The position numbers were made by a program, and so were the translations under genes. A DNA stretch of 61,860 bases. Source: Candidatus Thorarchaeota archaeon. Lineage in GTDB: Archaea; Asgardarchaeota; Thorarchaeia; Thorarchaeales; Thorarchaeaceae. Location of the stretch: NCBI GenBank assembly GCA_016839275.1, contig JAEOUM010000117.1, forward strand, positions 1 through 61,860. Reading direction: 5' to 3'. How positions within the stretch are numbered: position 1 is the stretch's first letter; the number at the start of each line of letters is the position of its first letter. Positions 302-53,991 of the stretch are shown here, one piece after another. A model generated the notes under the pieces. That model worked only from the letters and a program-made list of their open reading frames with translations, had not been told where the DNA came from and ran no database searches.

Positions 302-411
302 TGGTGGGCCGCGCCGGATTTGAACCAGCGACCTTCGATTCTGATGAGTCAGAAGCTCGATCAGATTCTCGGTGTAAACGAGACATCATAGCCGGGCTAG
401 ACTAGCGGCCC
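302..411 (-). tRNA. tRNA-Val(UAC) with a ~32-nt non-canonical intron between the anticodon stem and the variable loop; CCA is encoded
   Basis: Reverse complement: GGGCCGC-TA-GTCT-AGCCCGGCTA-TGAT-G-TCTCG-TTTACAC-CGAGA-[~32 nt]-AGGTC-GCTGG-TTCAAAT-CCGGC-GCGGCCC-A-CCA. The insert has a 4-bp helix TGAT/ATCA flanked by unpaired triplets and an outer CGA/TCG pairing, which is bulge-helix-bulge-like. Confidence 0.75.
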
Positions 412-7192: not shown

Positions 7193-8173
7193 ATGACAAT
7201 TGCCATTCATGAGAGCGCACTAATTCGGCATTTCAATACTCGGAAAGAGGTCTTACGAGCATGGGAGGAGAGGATTGGAGCCAGGTTCTCACCGTTTCGT
7301 GGCTTTAAGATGCCTGATAGTCGTTTATACATAGAAGATAGCAACTTTCTGGATTCTATTGTTGATTTAATTATCACCAATGAAAGACATGTTTTCATTC
7401 GAGGGCCAGTAGGCTCAGGAAAGAGTACATTGATGCTTTTGGCATTAAGAGACCTACCCACACTAGCAGACCGCAGAGGGAACAAATTTGTCACTGGTTA
7501 TGTAGGTATGACTGGACTCTATGAAAAACAAATGGCAGCCGCTATTGCTGATTCTCTCAGAGTCAAGTATAAGCGATCATGGGAATCAAGTCAGATTATT
7601 GATGCTGTTGCTAAAGAGAGTCTCAGAAGGTATATCGAGGAAAAGAGTCGTACAGCTCTGTTCATAGAAGATGTAGCAGACAACCAAGAAGCTGCTTTTC
7701 ATAAACTTCGTTTTCTTGCAGATTTGCCCACTGAAGAAATGATTGATGCTTATGGAAAAACGAGGGCTCTTGATGAACCTATTGTCACCTTAGTGATGTC
7801 TGGAACAACAATTTACTGGAATGCAATGTTATCATTTTTACCACAGATTGCAGACCGAACAGAACCTCTCGATGTGCCTGCTTTAAATAATGCAAAAGCA
7901 AGAGAGTTCATAGGACGTAGAATCGCCTATGCCCAAGGACGCATCGATAGTTTTGATCCAGATAATTTTGATGTCTATCCATTTACTGATGACGCAATCA
8001 ATGTGATTAATACTGCGTCCAAAGGAAATCCACGCGACATCAGGATGCTAGCACGAGGATGTCAGCAAGTTGCTGCTGAGATTCTTCGTAAGAATAATGA
8101 TCCGACAGTGAATAGAGAAATTGCAGAGCTTGTTTCTGAGGCTTATGCAACTATTCTCAAGGAGGTTCAGTGA
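7193..8173 (+). CDS. P-loop NTPase, AAA_22 / ORC-Cdc6 / TniB-ExeA-like
   Basis: Walker A GPVGSGKST, Walker B-like ALFIEDV, and a sensor-like GNPRDIRMLARG near the C-terminus. Confidence 0.65.
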   Translation: MTIAIHESALIRHFNTRKEVLRAWEERIGARFSPFRGFKMPDSRLYIEDSNFLDSIVDLIITNERHVFIRGPVGSGKSTLMLLALRDLPTLADRRGNKFVTGYVGMTGLYEKQMAAAIADSLRVKYKRSWESSQIIDAVAKESLRRYIEEKSRTALFIEDVADNQEAAFHKLRFLADLPTEEMIDAYGKTRALDEPIVTLVMSGTTIYWNAMLSFLPQIADRTEPLDVPALNNAKAREFIGRRIAYAQGRIDSFDPDNFDVYPFTDDAINVINTASKGNPRDIRMLARGCQQVAAEILRKNNDPTVNREIAELVSEAYATILKEVQ

Positions 8174-16017: not shown

Positions 16018-17910
16018 TTACTCCACCTCTCTCTTTATTGCACCTTGAGGACACACTGCAACACAGGTACCACACAGATTACAGAGTGTTTCGTCAATGA
16101 CAGCCTTTTCGGTTTCAGGATCCATATACATAGCAGGACATGACAATCGATTAAGACAGCGTTTGCATGAGTTGCACATTTCAGACTCTACATAGTACTT
16201 AGGGAGCTCAATACCTTCACGACGACGATCTGCAGCTGTCAAGAGTGCACATGGTTCTTTTGAAACAAGTACTGCAGGACTATGATTGTCCCTTGCCCAC
16301 TTGACCATCTCTCTTACTTCTGCAACAAGACCAGCTATTGACTCAAAGGGATAAACAGTCTTTACATACTTAACACCAAGACCCTTGCATACCTCTTCAA
16401 TATCTAACGGCTTGACGTGTTTCTGCATGCCTGTGACTCCAGTACCAGGGTGAGGCTGATGGCCTGTCATTGCAGTCGTTCGATTGTCTAGCACCACTAG
16501 ACAGATTCGATGTTGGTTGTATACTGCATCTACGATACCTGGTAGTCCAGACGCAAAGAATGTACTATCGCCTATTGTAGCAACCACATCCTGATCAGTG
16601 ACCTCAGCGAGACCGCATGCAGTAGTTATTGATGAACCCATATCAAAAAGAATGTCTGCAGTTTCAAGAGGCGGTGCAATGCTTAGTGTGTAGCAGCCAA
16701 TATCGGAAGGATAGATTGCCTTCCCTCTTGTTGCAGCCCGGATAGCATAGTATGTTGCACGGTGCGGACAACCTGCACATAGTAGAGGTGGTCTCGGAGG
16801 AATATCAGGGATTTTCCTTGCTCGTTCATCGATATCTTGCCAGTTAATAGTTGTATTACAGTTAATAACTTTACATAATGCTTCCATCGCGATACGAGGA
16901 CTGTATTCTCCCACCCTCGAAAAGTATCCTTGCTCCTTGCCAAGGATTTCTACAGAAACACCATGAAGCTGAGCCAGTCGTCGTGTATGAGTTTCAATGA
17001 AGGGTTCAAGTTCTTCGACTATTACGACTTGTTTATGATTACGGAGGAATGATATAATCTTCTTCTCGGGGATAGGATGTGTAATCCCGAGCTTGAAGAT
17101 CTCTGCTTGGATATTCATTTCAGCAAGAGATTCTCGAACATAGTTGTAAGACACTCCACATGTGATGATTCCAAGTTCGCCTTCGCCTTCTATGAAGTTC
17201 AGTGAGCTGGTTTCGGATACTTCCTGAGCTTTTTTGATCTGTTTGAGAAGCCACGGATGACGAGTTCGTGCTACTGAGGGTATTGGTACAAACCTGAATG
17301 GTTCTTTCTCAAATTCCACCTTTTGAGGAAGGGTAGGGATTTGTCCGAACTCAACAGGTGCTCGGGTATGATTGACTCGAGTAGTTGTTCTGAAGAGTAC
17401 AGGAAGCTCAAACATCTCAGAAAACTTGTAGGCTTCAAGAAGCATTGATTTTGCTTCGATGGGATCAGAGGGCTCCATCATAGGCATATTTCCCATCAGT
17501 GCGTAGTATCTGCTATCATTCTCGTTCTGCGAGCTCCACATACTAGGATCATCTGCGACAACGATGACCATTCCTGCTCGGACTCCAACATATGCTAAAC
17601 TAAAGAATGGGTCAGCGGCTACATTGAGACCGGGTCCTTTGCAGACCATCATTGATCTGACACCGGCAATTGCAGCGGCACCAGCTACTTCCAAGGCGAC
17701 CTTTTCATTGGTACTGAACTCAAAGTAGAAGTTAGGAATGTGTGGTGCCATAGCTGTCAGATTGTTACCAATTTCGCTACTTGGTGTTCCAGGATAAAGA
17801 GCGACTAGTCTGACTCCAGCCTCTAGTACACCTCGAGCAATAGCTTCATTCGCAAGTAATAGCATTTTCTTCCCAGGATTGTCTTCGAGCAGTTCTTGAG
17901 GTCTTGCCAT
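16018..17910 (-). CDS. iorA: Indolepyruvate:ferredoxin oxidoreductase alpha subunit
   Basis: TPP-binding region (GDSTFFASG). C-terminal ferredoxin-like Cys clusters (CNSCKRC..., CNLCGTCVAVCP). A GGAGG lies just upstream of the ATG at 17908-17910, so that start is preferred over 17952. Confidence 0.85.
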   Translation of the reverse strand: MARPQELLEDNPGKKMLLLANEAIARGVLEAGVRLVALYPGTPSSEIGNNLTAMAPHIPNFYFEFSTNEKVALEVAGAAAIAGVRSMMVCKGPGLNVAADPFFSLAYVGVRAGMVIVVADDPSMWSSQNENDSRYYALMGNMPMMEPSDPIEAKSMLLEAYKFSEMFELPVLFRTTTRVNHTRAPVEFGQIPTLPQKVEFEKEPFRFVPIPSVARTRHPWLLKQIKKAQEVSETSSLNFIEGEGELGIITCGVSYNYVRESLAEMNIQAEIFKLGITHPIPEKKIISFLRNHKQVVIVEELEPFIETHTRRLAQLHGVSVEILGKEQGYFSRVGEYSPRIAMEALCKVINCNTTINWQDIDERARKIPDIPPRPPLLCAGCPHRATYYAIRAATRGKAIYPSDIGCYTLSIAPPLETADILFDMGSSITTACGLAEVTDQDVVATIGDSTFFASGLPGIVDAVYNQHRICLVVLDNRTTAMTGHQPHPGTGVTGMQKHVKPLDIEEVCKGLGVKYVKTVYPFESIAGLVAEVREMVKWARDNHSPAVLVSKEPCALLTAADRRREGIELPKYYVESEMCNSCKRCLNRLSCPAMYMDPETEKAVIDETLCNLCGTCVAVCPQGAIKREVE

Positions 17911-17992
17911 TAAGGATCCTCCATTCTTTGAAGCATGTTTCGAGTTGCACAAAGAGCACTGTATCAGTCTTGTGGTAATGGAAATTTACTTC

Positions 17993-18004
17993 GAACACGT
18001 GTTC
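17993..18004. promoter_or_regulatory. Perfect 12-bp palindrome GAACACGTGTTC (copy 1)
   Basis: Read directly. Coordinates cross-checked against the frame of the spurious ORF 17964-18374. Confidence 0.6.
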
Positions 18005-18022
18005 TATTGCGAAACTTATTTT

Positions 18023-18038
18023 GTATTACAAGTAATAC
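18023..18038. promoter_or_regulatory. Perfect dyad GTATTAC-AA-GTAATAC between palindrome copies 1 and 2
   Basis: Read directly. 7-2-7 inverted repeat. Confidence 0.5.
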
Positions 18039-18041
18039 ATT

Positions 18042-18053
18042 GAACACGTGTTC
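18042..18053. promoter_or_regulatory. Perfect 12-bp palindrome GAACACGTGTTC (copy 2)
   Basis: Read directly. Confidence 0.6.
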
Positions 18054-18065
18054 CAATACCATCAT

Positions 18066-18089
18066 GACCCCATCATTTCCACTCGAAAA
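18066..18089 (-). promoter_or_regulatory. Origin recognition box (ORB), left, inverted orientation
   Basis: Reverse complement TTTTCGAGTGGAAATGATGGGGTC: a GAGTGGAAA dyad core followed by a G-tract, as in archaeal Orc1/Cdc6 binding sites. Confidence 0.65.
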
Positions 18090-18211
18090 TATCAATAGGT
18101 TGTCTAAAAGTATAGATTCCGGTAAGTATAAATAGCTGTTTCGAAAGCTGATTTTTATCTCCATTTTTATCATCATATGATCTGTCGCTGAGAAGCACCC
18201 CATTTTTTGTT

Positions 18212-18234
18212 GTTCCAGTGGAAATGAAGGGGTG
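18212..18234 (+). promoter_or_regulatory. Origin recognition box (ORB), right
   Basis: GTTCCAGTGGAAATGAAGGGGTG: TCCAGTGGAAA core plus GGGG tract, a near-textbook archaeal ORB. Confidence 0.7.
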
Positions 18235-18289
18235 TTATCCAGATAATCTTTAGACCCCATCCAGGCAGCTATGGACATTAGACTAACTA

Positions 18290-18301
18290 GAACACGTGTT
18301 C
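18290..18301. promoter_or_regulatory. Perfect 12-bp palindrome GAACACGTGTTC (copy 3)
   Basis: Read directly. It lies on the far side of the ORB pair from copies 1 and 2. Confidence 0.6.
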
Positions 18302-18393
18302 CAAATGTCCGCCAAAGTACTGATATTAAGTGGTTCAACATCAAATCGGTTTGAAGATTAACCCATAGATCCATTGGATATTTACTCTAGGGA

Positions 18394-19722
18394 CTATTTT
18401 CTCTTTAGACATTCAAAGATAATGAAGTGTGGCCATCGATCTGCATCGAATGCTAAGAAATCTGGATGATTCTGAATATCTTCTATTGATGGCTGAGGTT
18501 CTCGGATTTCAGATATAACAAGACCTGCATCTTTCAATGCTTTACTATAATCCGCCAAAGTGCGTATGAATTGCCATGTTGGTGTCCCAAACCAGCTTGT
18601 CAACTCTCCACCAGTTTCAAAATATCGATCAATCAACTTAATATATCTCTCTTCATTTCTCCTCGAATCTCGAGGAAACTTGAAGTCCCCCGCAGTACAA
18701 GACCGACCAAAGACAGGATGCACATTTGACCAGATGAACCTTCCATCATCCTTCAGTACTCTGGCAATTTCTTTGAATGCATTCTTATAGTCTAGAACAT
18801 CAACCATCACAACATTTGAAACGACGACATCAAATGACTGGTTCTCAAACATACTCATCTCTGTCAGTGAACCTTCTAAAAATTTGCATCCTAGTTTCTT
18901 TTCAGATTCAATCTTCTTACAGTACTCGATGAACGGACCTGAGAAATCAATACCTATCGCTTTAGCTCCTTTTGAAGCAAGAACTCTTGTCAGATATCCA
19001 TTACCGCATCCAGCATCTAGAACTGCTAGTTTATCTACATCACCAAGGAGATTCCAAAGGGCTGGATCAATGATATACTTACGATTTGGGTCTCCACTCA
19101 TGTCCTCTCCATGAGCATTAATCCAAGTTTCACTGTTCTCACTCCACGCGACGCCCTGATCAGACAAATCGATTTCATCCTCAGGAATTCCATATTTGAG
19201 AATCCTGTGCGGCCCAAGTTCATCTCGAAGTTGCATGAGTCGATTAGGAAGTTTGAGAGCTTCCGTGATTTCTATCTCTTTGCCTTCTCTCTGTTCACTA
19301 GGCTTCCACTCAGGTTTCCAAGGTCGCTCAGATTCAACATTAAAGATGATATCTCGATTACCTAATTGCCACGGATGTTTGCCTTGAAACTCTGCGTATA
19401 GGAGATCATAATGATGTTCTCCACAATCGTCACAATAGAAATCATAGGCATATGTCCGATCCCAGAATGCGACTGGTTTCATGGCGGGTTCATTGCAATT
19501 TCCACAGATTAGTTGCTTGCTTTTCGGACACCAGTAGAACCAGCTAAAGTGGCGTTCCTCTCCACATATCGAACAGGTGAATCTTGCATGCCATGCACAA
19601 CGAAAGACATAGGTTTCAAAGGTGTAAGTGCCTTCGCGAGTTGGGTATCCTTTCTCGCCAGTTCCTGTAATTCTCTTGCAGTAATAGCATGGCTGTTTTT
19701 CGGATGGTTCATAGAAGCGCAT
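18394..19722 (-). CDS. Class I SAM-dependent methyltransferase with a Cys-rich (multi-zinc-ribbon) N-terminal domain
   Basis: The N-terminal ~110 aa carry CxxC pairs (CYYC, CSIC, CGNC, CDDC). Motif I VLDAGCGNGYL and post-I IGIDFS. Confidence 0.7.
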   Translation of the reverse strand: MRFYEPSEKQPCYYCKRITGTGEKGYPTREGTYTFETYVFRCAWHARFTCSICGEERHFSWFYWCPKSKQLICGNCNEPAMKPVAFWDRTYAYDFYCDDCGEHHYDLLYAEFQGKHPWQLGNRDIIFNVESERPWKPEWKPSEQREGKEIEITEALKLPNRLMQLRDELGPHRILKYGIPEDEIDLSDQGVAWSENSETWINAHGEDMSGDPNRKYIIDPALWNLLGDVDKLAVLDAGCGNGYLTRVLASKGAKAIGIDFSGPFIEYCKKIESEKKLGCKFLEGSLTEMSMFENQSFDVVVSNVVMVDVLDYKNAFKEIARVLKDDGRFIWSNVHPVFGRSCTAGDFKFPRDSRRNEERYIKLIDRYFETGGELTSWFGTPTWQFIRTLADYSKALKDAGLVISEIREPQPSIEDIQNHPDFLAFDADRWPHFIIFECLKRK

Positions 19723-19806
19723 ATTGCGCTTATTCTGTATCTCTCTAATCTAAGTTTCCATGTCTCTTTGATCATGACGAAGAGCCGCTATGGTTCCTCA
19801 CAGTAA

Positions 19807-20094
19807 TCATACTTCCCTGATTATCTCATAGACCCTGAATTTCAGAATATCTTGATACATCGAAAATAAACTATCAAATAACGTTCGATATTCATCCGGA
19901 ACGATAATTGCTGAGTCTGCCACAGCTTCAGCTCCAAGACATTCATCTAGGAGACCTAGCTTTCGTTTCTCCTTGATCTCTGACTTCGTTCTCCAAGTGT
20001 ATGTATATCCATAGAGCTCCTTGGTGAATGCCACACGACGCGCATTGCTTTGTCTTGCATGTCGACAATCATAGAGATAGAGATACGAGACCAT
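19807..20094 (-). CDS. Hypothetical small protein (about 95 aa from ATG 20092-20094)
   Basis: ORF only. The ORF-track GTG start (20121) lies inside palindrome copy 4. Confidence 0.35.
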   Translation of the reverse strand: MVSYLYLYDCRHARQSNARRVAFTKELYGYTYTWRTKSEIKEKRKLGLLDECLGAEAVADSAIIVPDEYRTLFDSLFSMYQDILKFRVYEIIREV

Positions 20095-20115
20095 TATGCT
20101 CAAACTCAAACCACA

Positions 20116-20127
20116 GAACACATGTTC
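20116..20127. promoter_or_regulatory. Near-palindrome GAACACATGTTC (copy 4, one mismatch)
   Basis: Read directly. About 120 nt upstream of the LKR-like gene. A GTAATACA octamer follows at 20143-20150. Confidence 0.45.
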
Positions 20128-20247
20128 CGATTTTCAACTTGTGTAATACACCTAATCCATTGTACAGAGGGAAAAGGTTAAGCGTAGGAGACCAGGCTCT
20201 CCGCCCTGAGCGTAACTTCAGGCATGACTTGACTCGGAGGATGCTAC

Positions 20248-21567
20248 ATGAACCGCATTGGTCTGCGCAAAGAAGAGAAAGCTTTCGAAGCCAGGGTCCC
20301 CCTAATTCCTGAACATGTCAAATTGCTACGAGATCAACATCATATTGACTTTTTTGTAGAGCCTAACAAACAACGTGCTTTCTCAGAGAGTGAGTTTGAG
20401 AAGGTCGGCGCAACCATCATCCCCTTGAAAGGTAGTGGTTCCCAAGTGGTTTTTGGCATTAAAGAGATGCCAATAGGTTTCTTTGAAAGAGATGTGGTCT
20501 ATGTATTCTTTAGTCACACAATCAAGGGTCAAAAATACAATATGCCTATGCTTCGAAACATACTTGACGCAGGTGCAACACTGATTGATTATGAGCGTGT
20601 TGTAGATGAAAAGGGAAGACGTCTAATCTTCTTTGGTAACTGGGCCGGGATGGCTGGTATCTCTGATACTTTTCATGTGCTTGGAGAGCGGCTAGAGATA
20701 GAAGGCATTACTCCCAACCCATTTGCTGGAATGAGGTCGACACTAGAACTGAAGAGTTTGGATGCAGTCAAAGATGAGTTTAGATCCTTAGGGAAACGTA
20801 TCAGTGAACAAGGACTTCCTAAAGAGCTCACTCCTTTTGTTGTTGGATTTGCTGGCTATGGTAATGTATCCCGAGGAGCTCAAGAAATTTTCGATATTCT
20901 GCCCCATAAAGTGGTAGAGCCAGAGAACCTTCCTATTCTCGAACCCGAAGAAAATGCATTGTACAAGTGTGTCTTCAAGGAAGAACACATGGTTGAGCCA
21001 AAAGACCCGTTAGCTACGTTCAGCCTTCAAGACTATTACAAAACAGGAAAGGCAAACTACAGGGGTATATTCGAGAGTCATGTCCAATATCTCACAGTGC
21101 TGATGAACTGCATCTATTGGAGCGAAAAGTATCCAAGGCTAATATCAAAGAAATTCATCAGAGAACATTGGAATGAAGACAATCGAAAACTCCGTGTTGT
21201 GGGTGACATATCTTGTGACATTGGAGGCGCAATCGAATTTACTGTCAAATGTACAACACCAGGCAATCCTGCTTTCACTTATGTCATTAGCGAGGATAGA
21301 GCAGAGCCAGGAGTAAAAGAGAAAGGTCCAGTTGTCATGGCAGTTGATAACTTACCATGCGAGCTTCCGCGTGAATCATCAACATCATTTAGTGAAACAC
21401 TGGTTGGATTTATCCCGGTATTTGCAATGGCAGATTTCACAGTATCTTCCTTTGAGGACCTTAATCTACCAAGGGAAATCAAAGATGCTGTTATTGTGTA
21501 TCGAGGAAAATTAACAAAGAATTACGAGTATATTGAGGAATATCTTGTGGAGGACAAAATCAAATGA
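20248..21567 (+). CDS. Lysine-ketoglutarate reductase-like protein (saccharopine dehydrogenase, L-lysine-forming; eukaryotic AASS N-terminal-domain type)
   Basis: Strings shared with the LKR domain of eukaryotic AASS as I recall it: YVFFSHTIKGQ, LIDYERVVDEKGRRLIFFGNWAGMAG, GYGNVSRGAQEIF, MNCIYWSEKYPRL, GDISCDIGGAIEF, DNLPCELPRESS. Confidence 0.75.
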   Translation: MNRIGLRKEEKAFEARVPLIPEHVKLLRDQHHIDFFVEPNKQRAFSESEFEKVGATIIPLKGSGSQVVFGIKEMPIGFFERDVVYVFFSHTIKGQKYNMPMLRNILDAGATLIDYERVVDEKGRRLIFFGNWAGMAGISDTFHVLGERLEIEGITPNPFAGMRSTLELKSLDAVKDEFRSLGKRISEQGLPKELTPFVVGFAGYGNVSRGAQEIFDILPHKVVEPENLPILEPEENALYKCVFKEEHMVEPKDPLATFSLQDYYKTGKANYRGIFESHVQYLTVLMNCIYWSEKYPRLISKKFIREHWNEDNRKLRVVGDISCDIGGAIEFTVKCTTPGNPAFTYVISEDRAEPGVKEKGPVVMAVDNLPCELPRESSTSFSETLVGFIPVFAMADFTVSSFEDLNLPREIKDAVIVYRGKLTKNYEYIEEYLVEDKIK

Positions 21568-22880
21568 AGAAAGTGCTATGTCTTGGTGCGGGACTTGTAG
21601 CCCGACCATATATACAATATCTCAGTGAGAATGGCTTCCATGTTCTGGTTGCCAGCAGAACAATCGCTAAAGCTGAGCACTTGATTGAGGGCTGCAAAAA
21701 TACAGAAGCCATTGCTTTCAACATAGCTAAAGACGATAATCTTCTTGAGGAATTAACAACCAAAGTTGATCTAGTCTGTTCATTACTACCCTACACATAT
21801 CATGTCAAGGCCGCAAAGATTGCAATAAAACACAAGAAGCATTTCTGTACAACATCATACATCTCAAACGAGATGAAGGCTTTAGAGAAGGATGCTAAGA
21901 AAGCTGGAATCATACTTCTTAACGAGTGTGGTGTTGATCCAGGTATCGACCATATGAGTGCCATGCAAATCATAGATTACGTCCATCACAACGGAGGTAA
22001 AATCAAAAGCTTCACTTCATTTACAGGTGGACTTCCCGCCCCTGATTCAAACAATAACCCATACGGTTACAAACTATCATGGAGCCCTCGTGGAGTTCTG
22101 CTTGCGGGAAGGAATGATGCTCACTTCTTAAAAGATGGAAAAGAGATAACGATTCCTGGAGCTGACTTATTTCAAAATTACGAACTGATGGAGGTTCCAG
22201 GAATTGGCACCTTCGAGGGATACCCTAATCGTGATAGCATGTCTTACATTGATATCTATAACATTCCAGAAACGGAAACAATGCTTCGGGGTACTTATCG
22301 TAATATAGGTTGGTGTGAAACACTCGATAAGATTGCGGATCTTGGTCTACTTGATTTAGAGGAAAGGTTTCTGGACAATATGACATATGCTGATTTGATG
22401 AAAGAATTAACATCAGCAGGACCAGATGGCATCAGAAAAGCAGTTGCAAAGTTCTGTGGAATCGACAATAATCATCCAATCTTATCACGTCTTGAATGGC
22501 TCGGACTATTTGATGAAGTAATGATCCCTTCCGGTATCAACACAAGGCTTGATGCATTATGTCATCTTTTCGAGGACAAGCTACAATATGCTCCTGGTGA
22601 GCGTGACATGATAGTAATGCATCATGAATTCATAGTAGAGTATAAAGATAAGAAACAGAAAATCACATCCACTCTCATCGACTATGGAATTCCTCATGGT
22701 GACAGCTCAATGTCAAGAACAGTAGCATTACCAGTTGCTATTGCCAGTCGAATGATACTAAATGGGAAAATCAATCTCACAGGAGTCCACCGCCCAATTA
22801 TTCCTGAGATTTATGAACCAGTCCTTGAGGAGCTAGCGAGTCTGGATATAGCTCTTGAAGAGAAAACCATAGATCTATAG
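21564..22880 (+). CDS. Saccharopine dehydrogenase (L-glutamate-forming; eukaryotic AASS C-terminal-domain type)
   Basis: Rossmann KKVLCLGAGLVARP. Also LLPYTYHVKAAKIAI, GVDPGIDHMSAM, GGLPAPDSNNNPYGYKLSWSPRGVL, EGYPNRDS and ERDMIVMHHEF. The ATG overlaps the upstream stop (ATGA). Confidence 0.8.
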   Translation: MKKVLCLGAGLVARPYIQYLSENGFHVLVASRTIAKAEHLIEGCKNTEAIAFNIAKDDNLLEELTTKVDLVCSLLPYTYHVKAAKIAIKHKKHFCTTSYISNEMKALEKDAKKAGIILLNECGVDPGIDHMSAMQIIDYVHHNGGKIKSFTSFTGGLPAPDSNNNPYGYKLSWSPRGVLLAGRNDAHFLKDGKEITIPGADLFQNYELMEVPGIGTFEGYPNRDSMSYIDIYNIPETETMLRGTYRNIGWCETLDKIADLGLLDLEERFLDNMTYADLMKELTSAGPDGIRKAVAKFCGIDNNHPILSRLEWLGLFDEVMIPSGINTRLDALCHLFEDKLQYAPGERDMIVMHHEFIVEYKDKKQKITSTLIDYGIPHGDSSMSRTVALPVAIASRMILNGKINLTGVHRPIIPEIYEPVLEELASLDIALEEKTIDL

Positions 22881-22918
22881 AGTATCAAGATATCGAATAC
22901 AGAAGAGTATACACTCTG

Positions 22919-23590
22919 TTAGTCCCGGACACGCATCTGAATTGCTGCGAGGATTTCTTCCGCTCTGTCAGTTTCTTTCTGTACTTCTTTCAACTCAGTC
23001 TTGAGTCTGTAAGTGTACCCTGATCTATTCCCATAACGTTCTAGATGTCCTTTACCGTTATTCCACATCCGGGCTAAATACGTTGAAGCCGTGCTTTTAG
23101 GCAAATCCTCGCTGAATGAGTCTTCATAGATTTCGGCAACATCAAGCGATGAAAATTTCCCATGTTTGAAAGATGCATAGATAATAAGCTGCATCTTCTC
23201 AAAGTTACTCATCGAGTCAAAACGACTTTCATCGAATCCACTCTCTGATATTTCCTCAACAACTTCTTCAAATGTACAACCTGTACTCGTTTCTAAGAAT
23301 ACCTTAAACTTAGCAAACATTTCTTCTACACTACCGCCCTTCACCTGAAAACTAGACTCTTCTCCCATAGTTTCATCAGATACTACTATCTTGAAATCAA
23401 AGGGCGCCTCTGTGAGCGAGAGAATCTTACTAAATCTGTTGAGTGCTTCACTCGGATTCACATACTTGCATTGAAAAATCTCTCGGAGACCAGGAGCTGA
23501 GTAATAAGTAAATTCATAGACATAGTTGGTCCGGTCTCCATCACTCAATTTTATCACCACTAGAAGATACACACTAGATCTTCTATTCAT
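22919..23590 (-). CDS. Hypothetical protein with a C-terminal winged-helix-like DNA-binding segment
   Basis: SLDVAEIYEDSF...STYLARMWNNGKGHLERYGNRSGYTYRL resembles helix-turn-helix plus a beta wing. The N-terminal alpha/beta half is unassigned. Confidence 0.5.
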   Translation of the reverse strand: MNRRSSVYLLVVIKLSDGDRTNYVYEFTYYSAPGLREIFQCKYVNPSEALNRFSKILSLTEAPFDFKIVVSDETMGEESSFQVKGGSVEEMFAKFKVFLETSTGCTFEEVVEEISESGFDESRFDSMSNFEKMQLIIYASFKHGKFSSLDVAEIYEDSFSEDLPKSTASTYLARMWNNGKGHLERYGNRSGYTYRLKTELKEVQKETDRAEEILAAIQMRVRD

Positions 23591-23797
23591 TCACAACAAA
23601 TTATGCTCAAAGTCCAAATAAGTGTGAGTATGTGAATTGAATATACCAAGATAAGAGCTACATAGTGCGTCTGTTCACATTCAGAACACGTCCATCTCGT
23701 TTCTTATGTGCTCACGTCCTTTTCTTACTTCAAAATGGCAAAAAAGGGTTATGAATCCTTTATTGATGAAAATAAGAGAATTGTCCAACCTTTTTAT

Positions 23798-23826
23798 CAT
23801 TCACAGAAATATATGATATGTGAATG
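23798..23826. repeat. Inverted repeat CATTCACA-N13-TGTGAATG
   Basis: Read directly. Part of an array of at least 8 ATTCACA/TGTGAAT heptamers between 23589 and 24003. Confidence 0.5.
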
Positions 23827-23859
23827 AACCTCTAAGGTTTTCATATGTCCGATTACTCA

Positions 23860-23882
23860 GTTCCACAGGAAACGAAGGGGTG
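23860..23882 (+). promoter_or_regulatory. Third ORB-like element
   Basis: GTTCCACAGGAAACGAAGGGGTG matches the ORB at 18212-18234 at 20 of 23 positions, including the G-tract. Confidence 0.5.
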
Positions 23883-23980
23883 TGCCTATTCACAAGGATA
23901 AGAAGAGCTATAACTGCTTAATCGACTACAAAAAGCATCCAAAACGCTGTTTCTAATTATGGATTCACAATTATGGCGCC

Positions 23981-24003
23981 ATTCACACAAATTATGTGTG
24001 AAT
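23981..24003. repeat. Perfect inverted repeat ATTCACACA-AATTA-TGTGTGAAT
   Basis: Read directly. 9-bp arms. Confidence 0.55.
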
Positions 24004-24032
24004 TGCTGTTGATGAGGTAAGTCTGTGAAAAC

Positions 24033-25040
24033 TTAGATTGGCAGCAAATAGTCTGTCGAATCCTCTCCCAAAACAAGCTGTTGAAAACAATCTCCGGTAA
24101 CAGTATCAGTAACCCTTTCGAGACGTCCTTTTGCCATCGCAGACATTCCTTTTGTAACTTGTTCGGTGAATCGTCCTCGATAACTAACAAGTCTTTTGAG
24201 ATCTGTATTTTCTGACGATTCGACAGTATAGACACAGGGTGTAAAAATGGAGTCTGTGTCATCTTTGATGATGCAACAGGTTGTATAGTCATCTATCATC
24301 TCATACTGCATTCTTCCATAATACTCATCGATTTCTTCGGAGCGTCTGACCAGTCTAATGAAAAATTCATGTTCGTTAAAGAGACCCTGCAGAATTTTCC
24401 TACTCTCAATCTCCCTAAGCATATCATGATATCTAACCAATTCACCCCATCTAAAAGCTAAATGAGCATTCAAAAGATCTCCAGAATACTGTCTGACTCC
24501 TTTTATCTTATTGTAGTTATTAGACATATTATCATAGAATTTCCTACACGCCGCATCTCCATAGACAACTAGGTCGATATCCGACGTTGCTGTTGCTATA
24601 TCCAGAAGCTGTGATCCTGTTATACCAATATCAGACCATGATATCCCAGTCGACTGAACTAGATTTCTAACCAAACCATATGTTGCTTCTTGAAGATCAG
24701 TCTTCATTCCACGGTCATTTCTCATGCGAGATAAGTACTCTACTGGACTAAGAATTGAAACAATGTTCTCTCTTCCAACAGACTGTACGACTCTTCCATG
24801 GGCTTTACTAAACCATAGATACTCTGGGAAGTTAGATTTTAGATAGTCTTCTCTTTTTTTAATATCATAGATTTTCTGATAATTCGAATCTGATTTCGTC
24901 TTACTTTCTTCTGGCACATATCTCAAATAAGCTATGATACGGTCTTTTGGATGTATAACTCCTTTTACTTCAAAGACAAGGTTTTCGGAAGTGATGATAA
25001 AATAACCCTCAACAAGATTCTCAAATGACACATTCATCAT
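24033..25040 (-). CDS. Pol-beta-superfamily nucleotidyltransferase domain protein
   Basis: NTase signature GITGSQLLDIATATSDIDLVVYG. The N-terminal ~110 aa and the C-terminal domain are unassigned. Confidence 0.6.
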   Translation of the reverse strand: MMNVSFENLVEGYFIITSENLVFEVKGVIHPKDRIIAYLRYVPEESKTKSDSNYQKIYDIKKREDYLKSNFPEYLWFSKAHGRVVQSVGRENIVSILSPVEYLSRMRNDRGMKTDLQEATYGLVRNLVQSTGISWSDIGITGSQLLDIATATSDIDLVVYGDAACRKFYDNMSNNYNKIKGVRQYSGDLLNAHLAFRWGELVRYHDMLREIESRKILQGLFNEHEFFIRLVRRSEEIDEYYGRMQYEMIDDYTTCCIIKDDTDSIFTPCVYTVESSENTDLKRLVSYRGRFTEQVTKGMSAMAKGRLERVTDTVTGDCFQQLVLGEDSTDYLLPI

Positions 25041-42875: not shown

Positions 42876-42950
42876 GCGATCGTTGTCTAGGGGTTATGAT
42901 GCAGGCTTCCCAAGCCTGCGACCCGGGTTCGAATCCCGGCGATCGCACCA
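42876..42950 (+). tRNA. tRNA-Gly(CCC), intron-less; CCA is encoded
   Basis: GCGATCG-TT-GTCT-AGGGGTTA-TGAT-G-CAGGC-TTCCCAA-GCCTG-CGAC-CCGGG-TTCGAAT-CCCGG-CGATCGC-A-CCA. Confidence 0.85.
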
Positions 42951-42956: not shown

Positions 42957-43166
42957 AAATTTCGTCAAGTTTATCGGCAAAGTAGACATAGTTCAATCAG
43001 CGAGTGATGATTGCCATGACCCCGATGAGTCAGCAATGACAATGATATGGATCTTGAGTTAGGAGCTCGCTAATACTTTCGGAAACCTCCCCTCATAATG
43101 TACTTTTAATCGTACAGTCCGCAAATGCTTTTAAGGACGCTATAATAGAGTTGTTTTTGGACTGCC

Positions 43167-44372
43167 ATGGTTCATGATTATGTTGAAGACGAATTGAGCA
43201 GACGAAGTGTTTTCAAGTCTGAGCAATTTCTATCAATTGATTATGTACCCGAGAGCCTACCACATCGTCAATCTGAACTCAGAACGCTGGCTCAAAACTT
43301 CACGACTCTAATTCGTTCGCCAGGTAGAACCAGCCACAAATTCATCATTGAAGGTCCAGTCGGAACCGGAAAGACTGCAGTTGCTAAAAGATTCGCTGAA
43401 CAAATGGTCCAAGCCGCGGAACGACGAGAGATTAATCTTCACAATATACACATCAATTGCCGTGTCAATAAGACAGCCTATCTTGTTTTTCTACGTGCGC
43501 TCCGTGAATTCAAACCAGAATTTCCCCGGCGCGGTCATTCTCCTGAAGAATTACTTCAAATGTTGGTTGAAGTTCTCGATGAAGAAGATCGATACCTTTT
43601 GCTCATTCTTGATGAACTTGATTATTTCATCCGGCAAAGAGGTGCTGATATTCTATACGATTTAACAAGACTCACAGATGACAGATTAAATGCAAAACAA
43701 CGTGTTTCAATAATCGCAATAGGGCGTAGGATACCATTTGATGAAGATGCTGTTGATTCAAGTACACTGAGTACCCTCCAACGGAATATCTTACGGTTTT
43801 CCAAGTACGGTAGAAACGCTCTATATGATATTCTCAAAAACCGTGTTGACATGGCTTTTGAAAAGAATGCCGTTATGGATGAGACTCTCCATGTTATCTC
43901 AGATATTGCATCAGAAAGAGGTGATGCACGATATGCTATCGAGCTTCTATGGAGAGCAGGAAAACAAGCTGATAGTAGTCAAGTGAGTACAGTAGTTCCA
44001 GATTTCGCTCGTCAAGCAAAAGCAGACACACATCCTGAATTACGAAAGGAAATATTCAGCACGCTCACTCCTCAACACAAACTGTTTCTTCTAGCCACAG
44101 CTCGTCAGTTGAAAGAAACGCGTAGTGATTATGTTACCATAGGTGAGGTTGAAGAGATGTATCACTCAGCATGTGAGGAATATAGAAAAGAGCCAAGAGC
44201 GCACACCCAGATTTGGGAATGGGTTCAAGATCTTAACGCTCATGGAATAATCGATACGAAACGATCAGGAAGTGGCCAGAGAGGTCAGACAACACTCATT
44301 GGGCTTTCTGATGTTCCTGCAGAGATGTTAGAACACTTTATAGCTCATCTTCTAGATTCAAAGGAGTTGTGA
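43167..44372 (+). CDS. orc1: Orc1/Cdc6 replication initiator
   Basis: Walker A GPVGTGKT, Walker B LILDELD, sensor-2 GDARYAIELL and a C-terminal winged helix. Confidence 0.9.
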   Translation: MVHDYVEDELSRRSVFKSEQFLSIDYVPESLPHRQSELRTLAQNFTTLIRSPGRTSHKFIIEGPVGTGKTAVAKRFAEQMVQAAERREINLHNIHINCRVNKTAYLVFLRALREFKPEFPRRGHSPEELLQMLVEVLDEEDRYLLLILDELDYFIRQRGADILYDLTRLTDDRLNAKQRVSIIAIGRRIPFDEDAVDSSTLSTLQRNILRFSKYGRNALYDILKNRVDMAFEKNAVMDETLHVISDIASERGDARYAIELLWRAGKQADSSQVSTVVPDFARQAKADTHPELRKEIFSTLTPQHKLFLLATARQLKETRSDYVTIGEVEEMYHSACEEYRKEPRAHTQIWEWVQDLNAHGIIDTKRSGSGQRGQTTLIGLSDVPAEMLEHFIAHLLDSKEL

Positions 44373-44678: not shown

Positions 44679-45536
44679 ATGACAGACTATTTGGCGCGTC
44701 TGTTCTATCTTGGAGACCGCTATTACGGATCTCAGATACAACCTGGGCTAAAAACAGTCCAAGGAGAGCTTATCAAAGCTGTTTCGAAATGGAGTGGAGA
44801 AACCCACTCTTCGCATACAATTCAATTATCCGGGCGAACTGATAGAGGAGTTCACAGTCTAGGGCAATTGGTGATGATTACTACTGACAAGCGTTTCTCC
44901 ATCGATGGTATCAATAAGCATCTCCCTGAAGATATTGTACTTTGGGCACGAGTGCAGGCTCCTGAGGGATTTAGACCGCGTTCTGGTGCTTTAATGCGCC
45001 ACTACCGGTATTTCCTAGACGAATCTTGGAACAATATCAATCAGAACTACATTAGAGAAGCAATCTCTCTGGTTGTAGGATCAAATGATTTTAACTTCCT
45101 TTCAAAACCTGATGAACGCAGAAATACTGTTACCACAGTATTGAATGTGGCTTTTAGTGAGGTCCCTAATTTAAAATTTTTAGATATCTATGGAACCAGT
45201 TTCCTATGGAAGTTTGTGCGAAAAGTTGTGACATTATTGACTGCAATCGGTTTGGGGAAGATAAAACCTGAAACAATTCTTGAAATCCTTAATGGAAGCA
45301 AGAAAACTGTTCGAGGTGGAATAGAACCTGCACCACCAGAAAACCTTGTACTCATGGAAACTATTGTACCTTTCCGATTTATTACTAGTAAGTATGCACT
45401 ACGAAGAATTCAGAATTATCTTAATACTCGACGTGAATTTCTTAGACGATCTAGTATAACACTATTCGGTCTTACTGACCACTTCTCTTCTTCAATGATG
45501 TCTTATCAACACTCAACCAATTCGCATAATCCGTGA
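44679..45536 (+). CDS. truA: tRNA pseudouridine(38-40) synthase TruA/Pus1 family
   Basis: YYGSQIQPGLKTVQGEL and the catalytic loop SGRTDRGVHSLGQ. Confidence 0.85.
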   Translation: MTDYLARLFYLGDRYYGSQIQPGLKTVQGELIKAVSKWSGETHSSHTIQLSGRTDRGVHSLGQLVMITTDKRFSIDGINKHLPEDIVLWARVQAPEGFRPRSGALMRHYRYFLDESWNNINQNYIREAISLVVGSNDFNFLSKPDERRNTVTTVLNVAFSEVPNLKFLDIYGTSFLWKFVRKVVTLLTAIGLGKIKPETILEILNGSKKTVRGGIEPAPPENLVLMETIVPFRFITSKYALRRIQNYLNTRREFLRRSSITLFGLTDHFSSSMMSYQHSTNSHNP

Positions 45537-46701
45537 TACTTTTTGGCTTTAATCCAATTATTTCAGTGATAGTGTCATAATGAGTTCTCATCACTCTTGA
45601 TTTTGAAACTCCTGTTAATTTCGACAAACCTGATAAAACGTCTGACCGTTTGTCTTTTGATCTATTTCCCTGCCAAATTAGAAGTGGCCATGTAGGTTGA
45701 GAATAGCTGACCTTTCGATATGGAGTTATGTTTCTGCTCCCAGCAACACCAGTTGCAAGAAAATCATAGACATATGAGAGTAGTTTCCAATTCTGGTCTC
45801 TCATAATTCTCCCCAAAGCTAAATCTGCAAGTGAAAGTCCATCGAAACCATCACTCAATTCCTTCTGAGAGAGTAGATGCAGGTGTAGATTCTCTTCTAA
45901 CCACAATACTAACTCATCATGGTCAAGCTCAGATTCGGATAATATTCTTCGCGCAGTTTCTGCATCTGTTGTCATGAACACTCTTCGAAGTGTTTCTTCA
46001 GTTCCACGTCGAACATCTCTAATTGCGGCTTCGGTAGATGTATCTATTGTACCCCTTTTTACATAGGACTCGAGGTCTGAGATAGCAGCTCGAAGGTCCC
46101 CACCTGAGTTTTCTGCAATCTGATTGATTATTTCTTGTGAAACTTTAGCTTTGTTTTGTTTTGCTATTCGGAGAAGCACGGTAGTTATGTTTTCATTAGC
46201 AATTTGCTCAAAGGAAAATACTTGCGATATTTTATACAAGTCCTTAAGTCGTGGACTATTTGGGTCATTTGCAGTCATCACGATTGGATGGACTGATTCT
46301 TGAATCACTTTTACAATCGCACCAACACCGCCTCTATCACTCGTACCAGAGAGACCATCTACTTCATCTAAGAGAATTATTCTAAATCGTCCATCAAGAG
46401 TTTGCTGTGAAGCAGCTCTCCACACAAGGGTTTCAATACTATCTTTGTTTCTTTTATCACTTGAATTAAATTCGACAAGTTCCATATCTAATTCATTGGA
46501 CAACGCACCAACAGTAGCAGTCTTTCCAATACCTGGCGGTCCAATCAGTAGAGCGGCATGTTTACTGGGTATGCCTTTCTTCCAAGACATCACCCAGACC
46601 TTTAATGAAGCAATGGCATCCGGATTACCCACAATGAGTTCCAGATTTCTTGGTCGGTGTTTTTCTGGCCATGGAAGGCTCTCATCACTCATTACTACCA
46701 C
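45472..46701 (-). CDS. rfcL: Replication factor C large subunit
   Basis: WPEKHRP, Walker A GPPGIGKT and Walker B ILLDEVD. 17-nt overlap with rfcS. Confidence 0.85.
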   Translation of the reverse strand: MVVMSDESLPWPEKHRPRNLELIVGNPDAIASLKVWVMSWKKGIPSKHAALLIGPPGIGKTATVGALSNELDMELVEFNSSDKRNKDSIETLVWRAASQQTLDGRFRIILLDEVDGLSGTSDRGGVGAIVKVIQESVHPIVMTANDPNSPRLKDLYKISQVFSFEQIANENITTVLLRIAKQNKAKVSQEIINQIAENSGGDLRAAISDLESYVKRGTIDTSTEAAIRDVRRGTEETLRRVFMTTDAETARRILSESELDHDELVLWLEENLHLHLLSQKELSDGFDGLSLADLALGRIMRDQNWKLLSYVYDFLATGVAGSRNITPYRKVSYSQPTWPLLIWQGNRSKDKRSDVLSGLSKLTGVSKSRVMRTHYDTITEIIGLKPKSITDYANWLSVDKTSLKKRSGQ

Positions 46702-47647
46702 TACCTAATCCCACATGTGCTAAAAGAGCAGTGAGCTGAATTTCTCCGTTCGAACCCTCCCCGATTCTGAACTCGACTTCTGCAATTTGTTCTAGTATGT
46801 CCATTTGAAGCTGATTTGGTAGATTAAGTGTTTGAATCTCCTTATGCATTTGTTTCACTAAATCAACAGGAGAAACACCCTCATGGTAGATTAATGATCT
46901 AAGAGCCTGCAAAGCATCATTGTATCTACCATCACGAGCATCCGTTATCATTGTTTTCACAGTTTCAGGACTAGCTCTACCAGATATTGCATAAACAATC
47001 TTGTCTGTGATTTGTTGGCCAGTTGATGATGCTGCCTGTAAAAGGTTAATCGCAGCTCTCATATCTCCTTCTGTAAGATAGAGTATTGCATCAATTCCTG
47101 TTTGGTGGATTTTGATTTTTTCTAGGTCTGCTATATGTTTCAAACGAGTAGCTATTCCATCATCATCTAATCGCGAAAATCTGAATATTGCACATCTTGA
47201 TTGTATCGGCGGGATTATCCTGCTTGAATAGTTGCAAATCAAAATCATTCTACAAGATTGAGAGTAAGATTCCATAGTCCTTCGAAGAGCATGTTGAGCA
47301 TCAGTAGTCAGATGGTCCGCTTCATCTAGTACAAGAATCTTAAACGGCGCATTGCCTGATGGCATTATTCTTGCAAAGTTCTTTATCTGATTTCTGACAA
47401 CATCAATACCTCTCTCATCACTAGCATTAAGTTCCATGAAGTTACGTTCATAGCTATCTCCAAACAGATCCTTTGCCATTGCCATTGCTGCTGTTGTCTT
47501 ACTAGTTCCTGGTGGACCAGTAAAGAGACAGTGAGGCACTGCTTTATTCTCGACAAACATCACTAGGCTCTTGATAATCTGTTCCTGGCCTATTATACCA
47601 CCAAGAGTGGGTGGTCGGTATTTCTCAGTCCAAAGGTCTAAGTCCAT
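46685..47647 (-). CDS. rfcS: Replication factor C small subunit (no intein)
   Basis: WTEKYRP, GPPGTSKTT, VLDEADHLT and the SRC motif IQSRCAIFRF. ATG at 47645-47647 is preferred. Confidence 0.9.
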   Translation of the reverse strand: MDLDLWTEKYRPPTLGGIIGQEQIIKSLVMFVENKAVPHCLFTGPPGTSKTTAAMAMAKDLFGDSYERNFMELNASDERGIDVVRNQIKNFARIMPSGNAPFKILVLDEADHLTTDAQHALRRTMESYSQSCRMILICNYSSRIIPPIQSRCAIFRFSRLDDDGIATRLKHIADLEKIKIHQTGIDAILYLTEGDMRAAINLLQAASSTGQQITDKIVYAISGRASPETVKTMITDARDGRYNDALQALRSLIYHEGVSPVDLVKQMHKEIQTLNLPNQLQMDILEQIAEVEFRIGEGSNGEIQLTALLAHVGLGSGSNE

Positions 47648-47787
47648 TGTGGATTCCCACCATTTCTTCAATATTTCGACTCGTAATGCTGGATGGTTCA
47701 TGAATTCATTCTTGGTCCCTTAAAAGGTTCGTCAGAGACTTTAATGTTCAACTCTAGTGAGTAATTGTCTTGAACTTTTTAATCACT

Positions 47788-48408: not shown

Positions 48409-48501
48409 GCTGTGTGTATTAGTGCCCTTAAATACAAACCCTGAAGAACTAGGAGTCTGAAAAAAAAATGCAACAGCGCGCCTTGCTATCTATCGAGGCT
48501 G

Positions 48502-50577: not shown

Positions 50578-50612
50578 GCCATTCAGTATCAAAATCAGAA
50601 GTGGGGAATCAT

Positions 50613-53979: not shown

Positions 53980-53991
53980 GAACACGTGTTC
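53980..53991. promoter_or_regulatory. Perfect 12-bp palindrome GAACACGTGTTC (copy 5)
   Basis: Read directly. About 86 nt upstream of the deacetylase start and 60 nt upstream of tRNA-Pro. Confidence 0.55.

Follow-up and report, generated by a model that had tools for sequence, protein, structure and literature searches.

A conserved ORB cassette in Thorarchaeota is a likely Orc1-1-type chromosomal replication origin situated 23 to 25 kb from the initiator gene

The closest described counterparts of the locus treated here are the oriC1 origins of Sulfolobus and Aeropyrum, in which Orc1-1 is the initiator, three or four canonical origin recognition boxes (ORBs) lie in an intergenic region adjacent to the initiator gene, and an inverted ORB pair flanks an AT-rich region with a short conserved motif (ucm in Sulfolobus). 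Sulfolobus oriC1 is arranged as ORB2-DUE-ORB3, where DUE stands for duplex-unwinding element (PMC12141716), and the order ORB(-)/DUE/ORB(+) has been described as the minimal layout of a working archaeal origin (bioRxiv 10.64898/2026.08.15.744077). Euryarchaeal oriC loci (Pyrococcus, Methanomassiliicoccales, Methanomicrobia) abut orc1/cdc6 and usually hold more ORBs or mini-ORBs; in Haloferax and Pyrococcus, replication genes are clustered in the neighborhood. For Asgard archaea, the literature that we searched describes no chromosomal origin that both sequence and experiment define; what has been published relies on patterns of GC skew alone, which are absent or atypical in several classes (PMC11291895, PMC9246712). 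Here we describe a cassette at positions 17993-18301 of a 61,860-nt stretch of contig JAEOUM010000117.1 from a Candidatus Thorarchaeota archaeon (this whole stretch is the window, to which ORB and composition statistics refer unless relatives are named). The cassette lies upstream of the gene iorA, and its sequence and its likeness to described origins suggest that it is probably an Orc1-1/ORB-type (oriC1) chromosomal origin, 23 to 25 kb from the initiator gene.

Like the oriC1 origins of Sulfolobus and Aeropyrum, the cassette contains canonical ORBs, an inverted pair of them around an AT-rich region, and a short conserved spacer motif in a ucm-like position, and its presumed initiator is of the Orc1-1 class. 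Unlike them, it has two intergenic ORBs, its initiator gene is 25 kb away, and its spacer motif (AATGGAGATAA) is different from ucm in sequence. With euryarchaeal origins it shares the sequence of one ORB and, as in Haloferax and Pyrococcus, a cluster of replication genes nearby; it differs from them in that no ORB lies within 10 kb of orc1/cdc6, either in the window or in three relatives. The combination of ORB(-)/DUE/ORB(+) with a nonadjacent initiator gene is also found in the oriC of Hyperthermus butylicus (bioRxiv 10.64898/2026.08.15.744077), which belongs to another phylum and was likened here from its published description. The locus would belong to a known class of origin and be new as a Thorarchaeota member of it.

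An initial annotation, made from the letters of the window alone, had proposed a candidate replication origin here, consisting of two inverted ORBs (each a core followed by a G-tract) in an ORB-DUE-ORB layout around about 125 bp of roughly one-third G+C. It had suggested as checks a genome-wide scan with an ORB position weight matrix (PWM), a comparison of orthologous intervals, and a skew analysis; we ran the first over the window and the other two as described below. Its description of the ORBs and of the spacer between them held, and its proposal is supported by the canonical form of the ORBs, their layout, their conservation in 21 loci, the inversion of the cassette, linkage to orc1/cdc6, and, with reservations given below, a switch in strand composition. 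The core elements, together with a third ORB that the annotation had overlooked, are as follows.

18066-18089, minus strand: ORB-a, iorA proximal, TTTTCGAGTGGAAATGATGGGGTC, dyad toward the spacer and G-tract distal; PWM score, 31.3 bits; orthologous site in 21 of 21 relatives
18090-18211, unstranded: AT-rich spacer of 122 bp and 32.8% G+C, candidate DUE
18155-18165, minus strand: central spacer motif AATGGAGATAA (11-mer), present in all 21 relatives
18212-18234, plus strand: ORB-b, iorA distal, GTTCCAGTGGAAATGAAGGGGTG; PWM score, 38.3 bits
23860-23882, plus strand: ORB-c, solitary third ORB, GTTCCACAGGAAACGAAGGGGTG; PWM score, 35.0 bits

ORB-a, which reads GACCCCATCATTTCCACTCGAAAA on the plus strand (the reverse complement of TTTTCGAGTGGAAATGATGGGGTC), forms with ORB-b a 21-nt inverted repeat that is 90% complementary, with arms 125 nt apart. 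The consensus form of an ORB, a TCCA..GGAAA dyad followed by a GGGGT G-tract, is present. Of the 20 positions of the "Common" ORB motif of Ori-Finder 2, TCCA[CG]T[TG]GAAA[TC][GA]AAGGGGT (PMC4164010), ORB-b matches 20, ORB-c 19, and ORB-a 18. The archaeal ORB consensus quoted in PMC4153887 is CTTCCAGTGGAAACGAAAGGGGT; the same paper lists the Methanomassiliicoccales ORB GTTCCAGTGGAAATGA-AGGGGT, to which ORB-b is identical, and ORB-b also fits the Methanomicrobia motif TCCA[GC]T[GT]GAAA[CT][AG]A[AT]GGGGT.

When up to 3 mismatches are allowed, the 20-mer TCCAGTGGAAATGANGGGGT occurs 3 times in the window, against 0.02 expected. We also trained an ORB PWM on the relatives' sites only and then ran it over the 61.8-kb window. 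It returned three sites (38.3, 35.0, and 31.3 bits), and no equally good ORB string was found elsewhere in the window: the runner-up scored 6.3 bits, and the maximum in shuffled sequence was 18.7 bits. Given the 3 matches against 0.02 expected and the gap between 31 to 38 bits and 6.3 bits, a chance origin of the ORB matches is excluded. The strings ACCCCAT at 18197 and 18254, which the annotation had offered as possible degenerate half-sites, are indeed present, but we rejected them as half-sites, as the string is found 7 times in the window against 4.85 expected and neither copy is conserved as a G-tract in the relatives.

The spacer has 32.8% G+C against 40.8% for the window, which places it in the lowest 2.8% of 122-bp windows. 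In duplex stability it ranks as the ninth least stable 100-bp stretch in 61.8 kb (top 0.23% least stable). The motif AATGGAGATAA in its center is a possible accessory-factor site, its position being analogous to that of ucm in Sulfolobus.

For the comparison of orthologous intervals, the relatives were 21 non-identical Thorarchaeota loci anchored on iorA (80 to 96% identical). We chose iorA as the anchor because the gene on the other side of the cassette, which encodes an S-adenosylmethionine (SAM) methyltransferase, proved to be a lineage-specific insertion. The named sources of iorA homologues (83 to 96% identity) are nearly all Candidatus Thorarchaeota, with two Sifarchaeia or Promethearchaeota labels. 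Both ORBs were found in 21 of 21 relatives, at about 140 to 195 and 290 to 345 bp upstream of iorA, with a start-to-start spacing of 143 to 148 bp (mostly 146 to 148 bp). The spacer between the 20-mers measures 123 to 128 bp in these loci and has 20 to 35% G+C, compared with 36 to 48% for the whole loci, and the position of AATGGAGATAA within it is fixed, at 47-48 on the plus strand or mirrored at 65-68 on the minus strand. The window and all 21 relatives thus have at least two inverted ORBs around an AT-rich candidate unwinding element, in the order ORB(-), spacer, ORB(+).

Almost every ORB copy in the relatives keeps both the GGAA core and the GGGGT tract; where the three ORBs vary, the changes are mostly at the third base of the dyad, at its two central bases, or in the stretch that separates the GGAA core from the G-tract. 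ORB-c lies about 4.4 to 4.5 kb upstream of iorA in the relatives and was seen in each one whose locus extends that far, with changes at the two central dyad bases and, in three loci, at one base of the tail. In the alignment of relatives, the remaining intergenic sequence is far less conserved than the ORBs and the spacer motif. Because the ORBs, their spacing, the AT-rich spacer, and the 11-mer persist while the surrounding intergenic sequence diverges, the alignment indicates that purifying selection acts on the ORB-spacer-ORB element.

The ORB pair is embedded in a set of palindromes, three of which, copies of GAACACGTGTTC, had also escaped the initial annotation.

17993-18301, unstranded: palindrome-bounded cassette of about 310 bp, inverted as a unit in one subclade
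18290-18301, unstranded: PAL1, 12-bp palindrome GAACACGTGTTC, outer cassette boundary, conserved in relatives
18042-18053, unstranded: PAL2, GAACACGTGTTC, 13 nt from the end of the ORB-a G-tract, moves with the cassette on inversion
17993-18004, unstranded: PAL3, GAACACGTGTTC, 83 to 94 bp upstream of the iorA start, inner cassette boundary
18022-18037, unstranded: 16-bp palindrome GTATTACAAGTAATAC between PAL2 and PAL3, with the form TATTACnTGTAATA in relatives

Palindromes of the GAACACGTGTTC type flank the ORB pair in nearly all 21 relatives. In one subclade (L027, L028, L030-L034, L040, L041, and L043), the whole ORB-spacer-ORB cassette is inverted with respect to iorA: AATGGAGATAA is found there as its reverse complement, and GTATTACAAGTAATAC and the middle GAACACGTGTTC copy are on the opposite side of the ORB pair. 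Reverse-complement alignment gave values of 240 to 285, versus 162 to 197 for direct alignment, in L027, L031, L032, L040, and L043; in the same-orientation loci L021, L026, L036, and L039, direct alignment gave 252 to 353, versus 142 to 183 for the reverse complement. Since the whole cassette is inverted in this subclade, with the spacer motif mirrored exactly, its function is independent of its orientation to iorA. The inversion fits a symmetric bidirectional origin and speaks against a directional promoter element. Flanking 12-bp palindromes and cassette inversion have not, to our knowledge, been described for oriC1.

Identical palindromes at both boundaries and a history of inversion would also suit a mobile or foreign element, either a miniature inverted-repeat transposable element with palindromic ends or the integrated origin of a plasmid or virus, and the methyltransferase gene was inserted directly beside the cassette in this lineage. 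Such an element would be expected in multiple copies at nonsyntenic positions; instead, the cassette is single copy in each locus, always between a small open reading frame (ORF) and iorA, and in 21 of 21 relatives its syntenic position, with housekeeping genes on either side, is the same. Searches of plasmid and phage records gave no similarity to it, and none of the annotated neighbors was recognized as an integrase gene or another gene of mobile elements. We regard a mobile origin of the cassette as highly improbable.

The genes on the two sides of the cassette, and the further copies of the 12-bp palindrome, are as follows.

16018-17910, minus strand: iorA, 630 aa, transcribed away from the cassette and flanking it
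18394-19722, minus strand: SAM-methyltransferase gene, 442 aa, adjoining the cassette and not at this position in any of the 21 relatives
20116-20127: further copy of GAACACGTGTTC (1 mismatch), between the alanine dehydrogenase (AlaDH) gene and the small ORF
53980-53991: further copy of GAACACGTGTTC, upstream of a histone-deacetylase-like gene

The gene-free interval had been given as 441 bp; it is in fact 483 bp (17911-18393), since the true start of iorA is the ATG at 17910, a start supported by exact matches of the 630-aa product in public contigs. A 136-aa ORF across the interval (17964-18374) was rejected as a gene: it has no Pfam match and its open frame is not conserved, no open frame crossing the ORB pair in 15 of 21 relatives. 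The ORB-pair region is therefore noncoding. An Rfam search of 17800-24200 gave no match at E ≤ 1, and a noncoding RNA was rejected for either intergenic module of the locus. The nearest homologues of the methyltransferase are 66% identical and come from Hermodarchaeota-labeled and Bathyarchaeota-labeled metagenome-assembled genomes (MAGs), where they stand in other gene contexts; a look-up of its exact sequence found no record. Relatives anchored on the methyltransferase (best, 66%; not syntenic) had no ORBs beside the gene, with a single weak ORB-like match (15.6 bits, 4.6 kb off, in L001). In the iorA leader (17930-17975, minus strand), the block ACCACAAGACTGATACA is strongly conserved; it has the promoter-proximal palindrome on one side and the ribosome-binding site GGAGGATC of iorA on the other, and it could be a further operator or an element of the 5' untranslated region.

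At ≤1 mismatch, GAACACGTGTTC has 5 matches in the window against 0.12 expected, 3 of them in the ORB interval, and the site upstream of the deacetylase-like gene is conserved in two relatives. Because copies recur in the promoter regions of iorA, the AlaDH gene/small ORF, and the deacetylase-like gene, GAACACGTGTTC probably serves as the operator for a dimeric regulator that controls a small set of genes, PAL3 being a likely promoter operator. The small ORF (104 aa) beside the cassette, considered as a candidate for the palindrome-binding regulator, gave no family match.

The presumed trans-acting partner of the ORBs is encoded in the right half of the window, at the head of a replication gene island.

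43167-44372, plus strand: orc1/cdc6, identified by Pfam and by NCBIfam NF001623 (350.6 bits versus a cutoff of 311)
45472-46701, minus strand: RFC large subunit gene, first of the replication gene island (45472-52850) headed by orc1
46685-47701, minus strand: RFC small subunit gene, same island
47770-48408, plus strand: Gins23 gene, same island
48502-50577, plus strand: MCM gene, same island
50601-52850, plus strand: Hel308-like helicase gene, same island

The best Protein Data Bank (PDB) matches of the orc1/cdc6 product are 1FNN (Pyrobaculum/P. aerophilum Cdc6), 2QBY_A (S. solfataricus Orc1-1), and 2V1U_A (A. pernix ORC1). Since the NF001623 cutoff was passed and these are the closest structures, the product is assigned to the Orc1-1 class, which recognizes canonical ORBs, and the genome itself thus appears to encode the cognate initiator. 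It is the only such gene in the window; a 326-aa AAA_22 ORF (7193-8173) was considered as a second Cdc6 and rejected, as it has no Cdc6-level similarity. The distance between orc1 and the ORB pair is 24.9 kb (23.5 kb when the methyltransferase insertion is subtracted), and the PWM scan found no ORB in the upstream region of orc1 in the window, as the initial annotation had stated. The annotation had called this distance unusual, which it is, but it has a precedent in the H. butylicus oriC; with such exceptions documented (bioRxiv 10.64898/2026.08.15.744077), adjacency of orc1/cdc6 is typical of this class of origin and not obligatory. On the related contig JAFGAR010000088.1, orc1 (about 208.6 to 209.8 kb) and the ORB pair (about 233.0 to 233.15 kb) are 23.2 kb apart in the same synteny, and gene order is shared with the window from about 8 kb to about 54 kb. 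The synteny of the replication island is also conserved in L048 and L051.

Four Thorarchaeota share a conserved noncoding element of about 75 nt (about 42997-43073) between a tRNA-Gly gene (42876-42950) and orc1. Its terminal stem is GGCGAG/CTCGCC, shortened in the window to GCGAG/CTCGC, and a TGATGA box lies just inside the stem. The element has no Rfam match; a C/D-box-like small RNA is one possibility, and a leader or promoter element of orc1 is another. In CP070761.1, a 3.16-Mb Thorarchaeota record (L050 9527-9625), a run of Ns lies directly upstream of orc1, so the record is a scaffold there and not closed; the apparent loss of synteny at that point may be an assembly join.

Raw sliding-window GC skew over the 62 kb follows gene orientation and is not interpretable. 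For the 48 genes of the window, we therefore evaluated strand composition at the third positions of four-fold degenerate codons and included gene strand as a covariate. Plus-strand TA skew was about -0.07 on the left side of the cassette and about +0.05 on its right side, and the best TA breakpoint among all gene boundaries was the one between iorA and the methyltransferase gene (F value = 28.6). This F value was reached in 0 of 2,000 gene-order permutations, whether for the fixed boundary or for the maximum over boundaries (P value < 0.0005). Among genes directed away from the locus, 19 of 26 had T>A, and among those directed toward it, 18 of 22 had A>T. The GC component in the window was weaker (P value = 0.02 at the fixed break and 0.09 for the maximum over all breaks). 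Both signs were repeated on JAFGAR010000088.1 (TA, +0.017 versus -0.078; GC, -0.304 versus +0.018). Pooled over 15 relatives, genes that point away from the cassette were more C-rich than those that point toward it, on both sides (-0.213 versus -0.061 and -0.325 versus -0.007); on either side, 14 of the 15 loci followed this pattern, which is mirror-symmetric about the cassette. The suggested skew analysis thus gave a TA polarity switch at the boundary between iorA and the methyltransferase gene; raw GC skew was uninformative, and the GC sign was unconventional. We read these data as tentative support for a replication boundary at the locus.

Several observations weigh against an origin at the cassette, and four of them are compositional. 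First, boundaries across about 16 to 25 kb do nearly as well (the resolution is about 9 kb), and the intergenic region that contains ORB-c (module B, 23591-24032) is an equally good breakpoint. Second, on the L051 contig, where only the orc1 side is sampled, the TA sign is reversed; the GC sign is repeated there. Third, the test on 15 pooled relatives reuses the same orthologous genes, which makes gene-specific codon bias a confounder. Fourth, the G/C asymmetry runs against convention, in that it makes the presumed leading strand rich in C; taken alone, this would suggest a terminus. The usual convention, as in bacteria and Pyrococcus, is a G-rich leading strand, and under that rule the C-rich genes transcribed away from the locus would fit converging forks at a replication terminus or some other compositional boundary, with ORB-like strings that are unrelated to it. 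The ORB pair is canonical and conserved, however, and we know of no archaeal terminus that carries ORBs. The TA sign is origin-like in the window and in JAFGAR010000088.1, and orc1, MCM, GINS, and RFC genes are clustered nearby, as at other archaeal origins (Haloferax). A terminus is therefore a very unlikely reading of the locus. Relative to genes transcribed toward the locus, those transcribed away from it were C-rich at four-fold sites in the window (48 genes) and in L021, L048, and L051; an origin at this locus would mean that this lineage has a C-rich leading strand.

The remaining points on that side concern the locus itself. The intergenic region has just two ORBs, the initiator gene is not adjacent (24.9 kb away, and 23.2 kb on JAFGAR010000088.1), and the GAACACGTGTTC palindromes lie at promoter distance from three genes, so that part of the conservation of the interval is plausibly transcriptional. 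They lead to a reading in which the ORBs are genuine Orc1 sites without initiation, with Orc1 acting as a transcriptional regulator of iorAB or of neighboring amino acid catabolism genes, or with the locus acting as a titration or dormant site. The ORB pair, 155 to 325 bp upstream of iorA, is interspersed with palindromic operators of which other promoters have copies too, and solitary or non-origin ORBs are known (an ORB cluster in Haloarcula proposed for negative control; orphan ORBs in Methanomassiliicoccales [PMC4153887]). The distance of orc1 would suit this reading as well. A regulator site, however, would need no strictly conserved AT-rich spacer of 123 to 128 bp between inverted sites; the cassette has been kept even where its inversion swaps the promoter-facing ORB; and the switch in composition polarity maps to the locus of the ORB pair. 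On balance, ORBs that bind Orc1 and do not initiate seem to us a rather unlikely explanation of the cassette, and an origin remains the reading that we consider likely.

ORB-c stands apart from the pair, in an intergenic region next to a gene of its own.

23591-24032, unstranded: module B, intergenic, strikingly conserved in all relatives, containing ORB-c, heptamers, and an invariant 23-mer
22919-23548, minus strand: gene for a protein of about 209 aa, directly downstream of module B, with a probable C-terminal winged-helix DNA-binding domain

Of the 23 TGTGAAT/ATTCACA heptamers in the window, 8 exact copies lie in module B, most of them at conserved positions. Module B also has invariant blocks, among them the 23-mer TTCACATACTCACACTTATTTG, which has the form ATTCACATACTCACACTTATTTGG in the window. 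RNAalifold found pairings in module B only between heptamers and without covariation. The 209-aa protein has at least 80% identity across its 120 best homologues, of which the named ones come from Thorarchaeota-type MAGs. Its remote relatives in an exhaustive search match only the C-terminal ~90 residues, and some of them are weakly of the BlaI winged-helix type, which makes a C-terminal winged-helix domain probable. Profile comparison of the protein with Orc1 and the PDB found nothing, and its AlphaFold model (pLDDT, 51.5) is too low in confidence to use. The closest parallel among described systems is Sulfolobus oriC3-whiP, likewise a conserved, repeat-rich intergenic region directly upstream of the gene for a small winged-helix protein, a probable one in the case of module B. 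The differences are that the repeats of module B are TGTGAAT and not a TACTAC-type inverted repeat, that a canonical ORB is present as well, and that the 209-aa protein showed no similarity to Orc1 or PDB chains.

Module B may be an Orc1-regulated, autoregulated promoter or a second origin-binding platform. If it worked in the manner of oriC3-whiP, initiation would occur at, or need, module B, and the ORB pair would be auxiliary or a second origin 5.6 kb away. Module B is conserved even more than the ORB-pair region, with its 8 clustered heptamers and invariant 23-mer; the adjacent protein, at least 80% identical in its 120 best homologues, probably has a winged helix; and the skew breakpoints at 24033 and 25057 nearly equal the one at 18394 (F values, 25.7 to 26.2 versus 28.6). 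Yet ORB-c is the only ORB in module B, so that an inverted pair is missing, and module B, at 36% G+C overall, lacks a pronounced AT-rich block; the 209-aa protein has no detectable similarity to Orc1 or to solved structures, and the repeats sit where the promoter or operators of the gene itself would be. We consider initiation through module B unlikely. A further reading, speculative and in our estimate rather improbable, is that of a Thorarchaeota composite replicator, in which the invertible, palindrome-bounded ORB-DUE-ORB cassette would act together with a hyper-conserved module 4 to 6 kb off where ORB-c stands in an iteron-like TGTGAAT array beside the gene for the 209-aa protein. That the 209-aa protein would then be a second origin-binding factor (a co-initiator, licensing, or partition factor) is doubtful to a similar degree. 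If the composite replicator were true, initiation would need Orc1 plus a lineage-specific DNA-binding partner, an arrangement not so far described in archaea.

Taking the cassette as an oriC1-type origin, we infer by analogy with oriC1 of Sulfolobus and Aeropyrum how Orc1 would bind, how MCM would be loaded and replication initiated, and what all the accessory motifs would do. One ATP-bound Orc1 monomer, encoded by the gene at 43167, would bind each ORB with fixed polarity, its winged helix on the TCCAGTGGAAA dyad beside the spacer and its AAA+ initiator-specific motif on the GGGGT tract at the distal end. Facing inward, the two Orc1 molecules would load MCM, encoded 30 kb away, onto the AT-rich spacer of about 125 bp, which would melt, and two forks would depart in opposite directions. 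The motif AATGGAGATAA is probably bound by an accessory protein, as in the ucm/UBP pair of Sulfolobus. The GAACACGTGTTC palindromes are probably bound by a dimeric regulator that would couple transcription to the origin or insulate it from the origin, and they are the likely substrate of cassette inversion. ORB-c, 5.6 kb off, would bind a third Orc1 and is most likely a regulatory or auxiliary site.

Elsewhere in the window, Rfam reports a tRNA over 107 nt at 305-411 (minus strand) for which there is no ARAGORN call. This is consistent with an intron-containing tRNA gene, and such genes have been described for other Asgard genomes.

Three features of the locus appear to be undescribed: the inversion of the palindrome-bounded cassette, the invariant spacer motif, and the satellite ORB within a heptamer array beside a probable winged-helix gene known only from Thorarchaeota-type genomes. 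Given the rules quoted in bioRxiv 10.64898/2026.08.15.744077, we expect that the locus would probably escape automatic pipelines whose rules call for an initiator gene next to the origin or for at least three ORBs per intergenic region. As an ORB-DUE-ORB element conserved across the class, the cassette offers a target for assays of Orc1 binding and MCM loading. It would also be useful for peak-to-trough estimates of growth rate from metagenomes, for anchoring and orienting Thorarchaeota assemblies, and for shuttle vectors. No known prokaryotes are more closely related to eukaryotes than the Asgard archaea, whose replication proteins are intensively studied. The locus suggests that the code by which Orc1-1 recognizes ORBs is essentially unchanged in Asgard archaea, which bears on when the eukaryotic ORC lost its sequence specificity.

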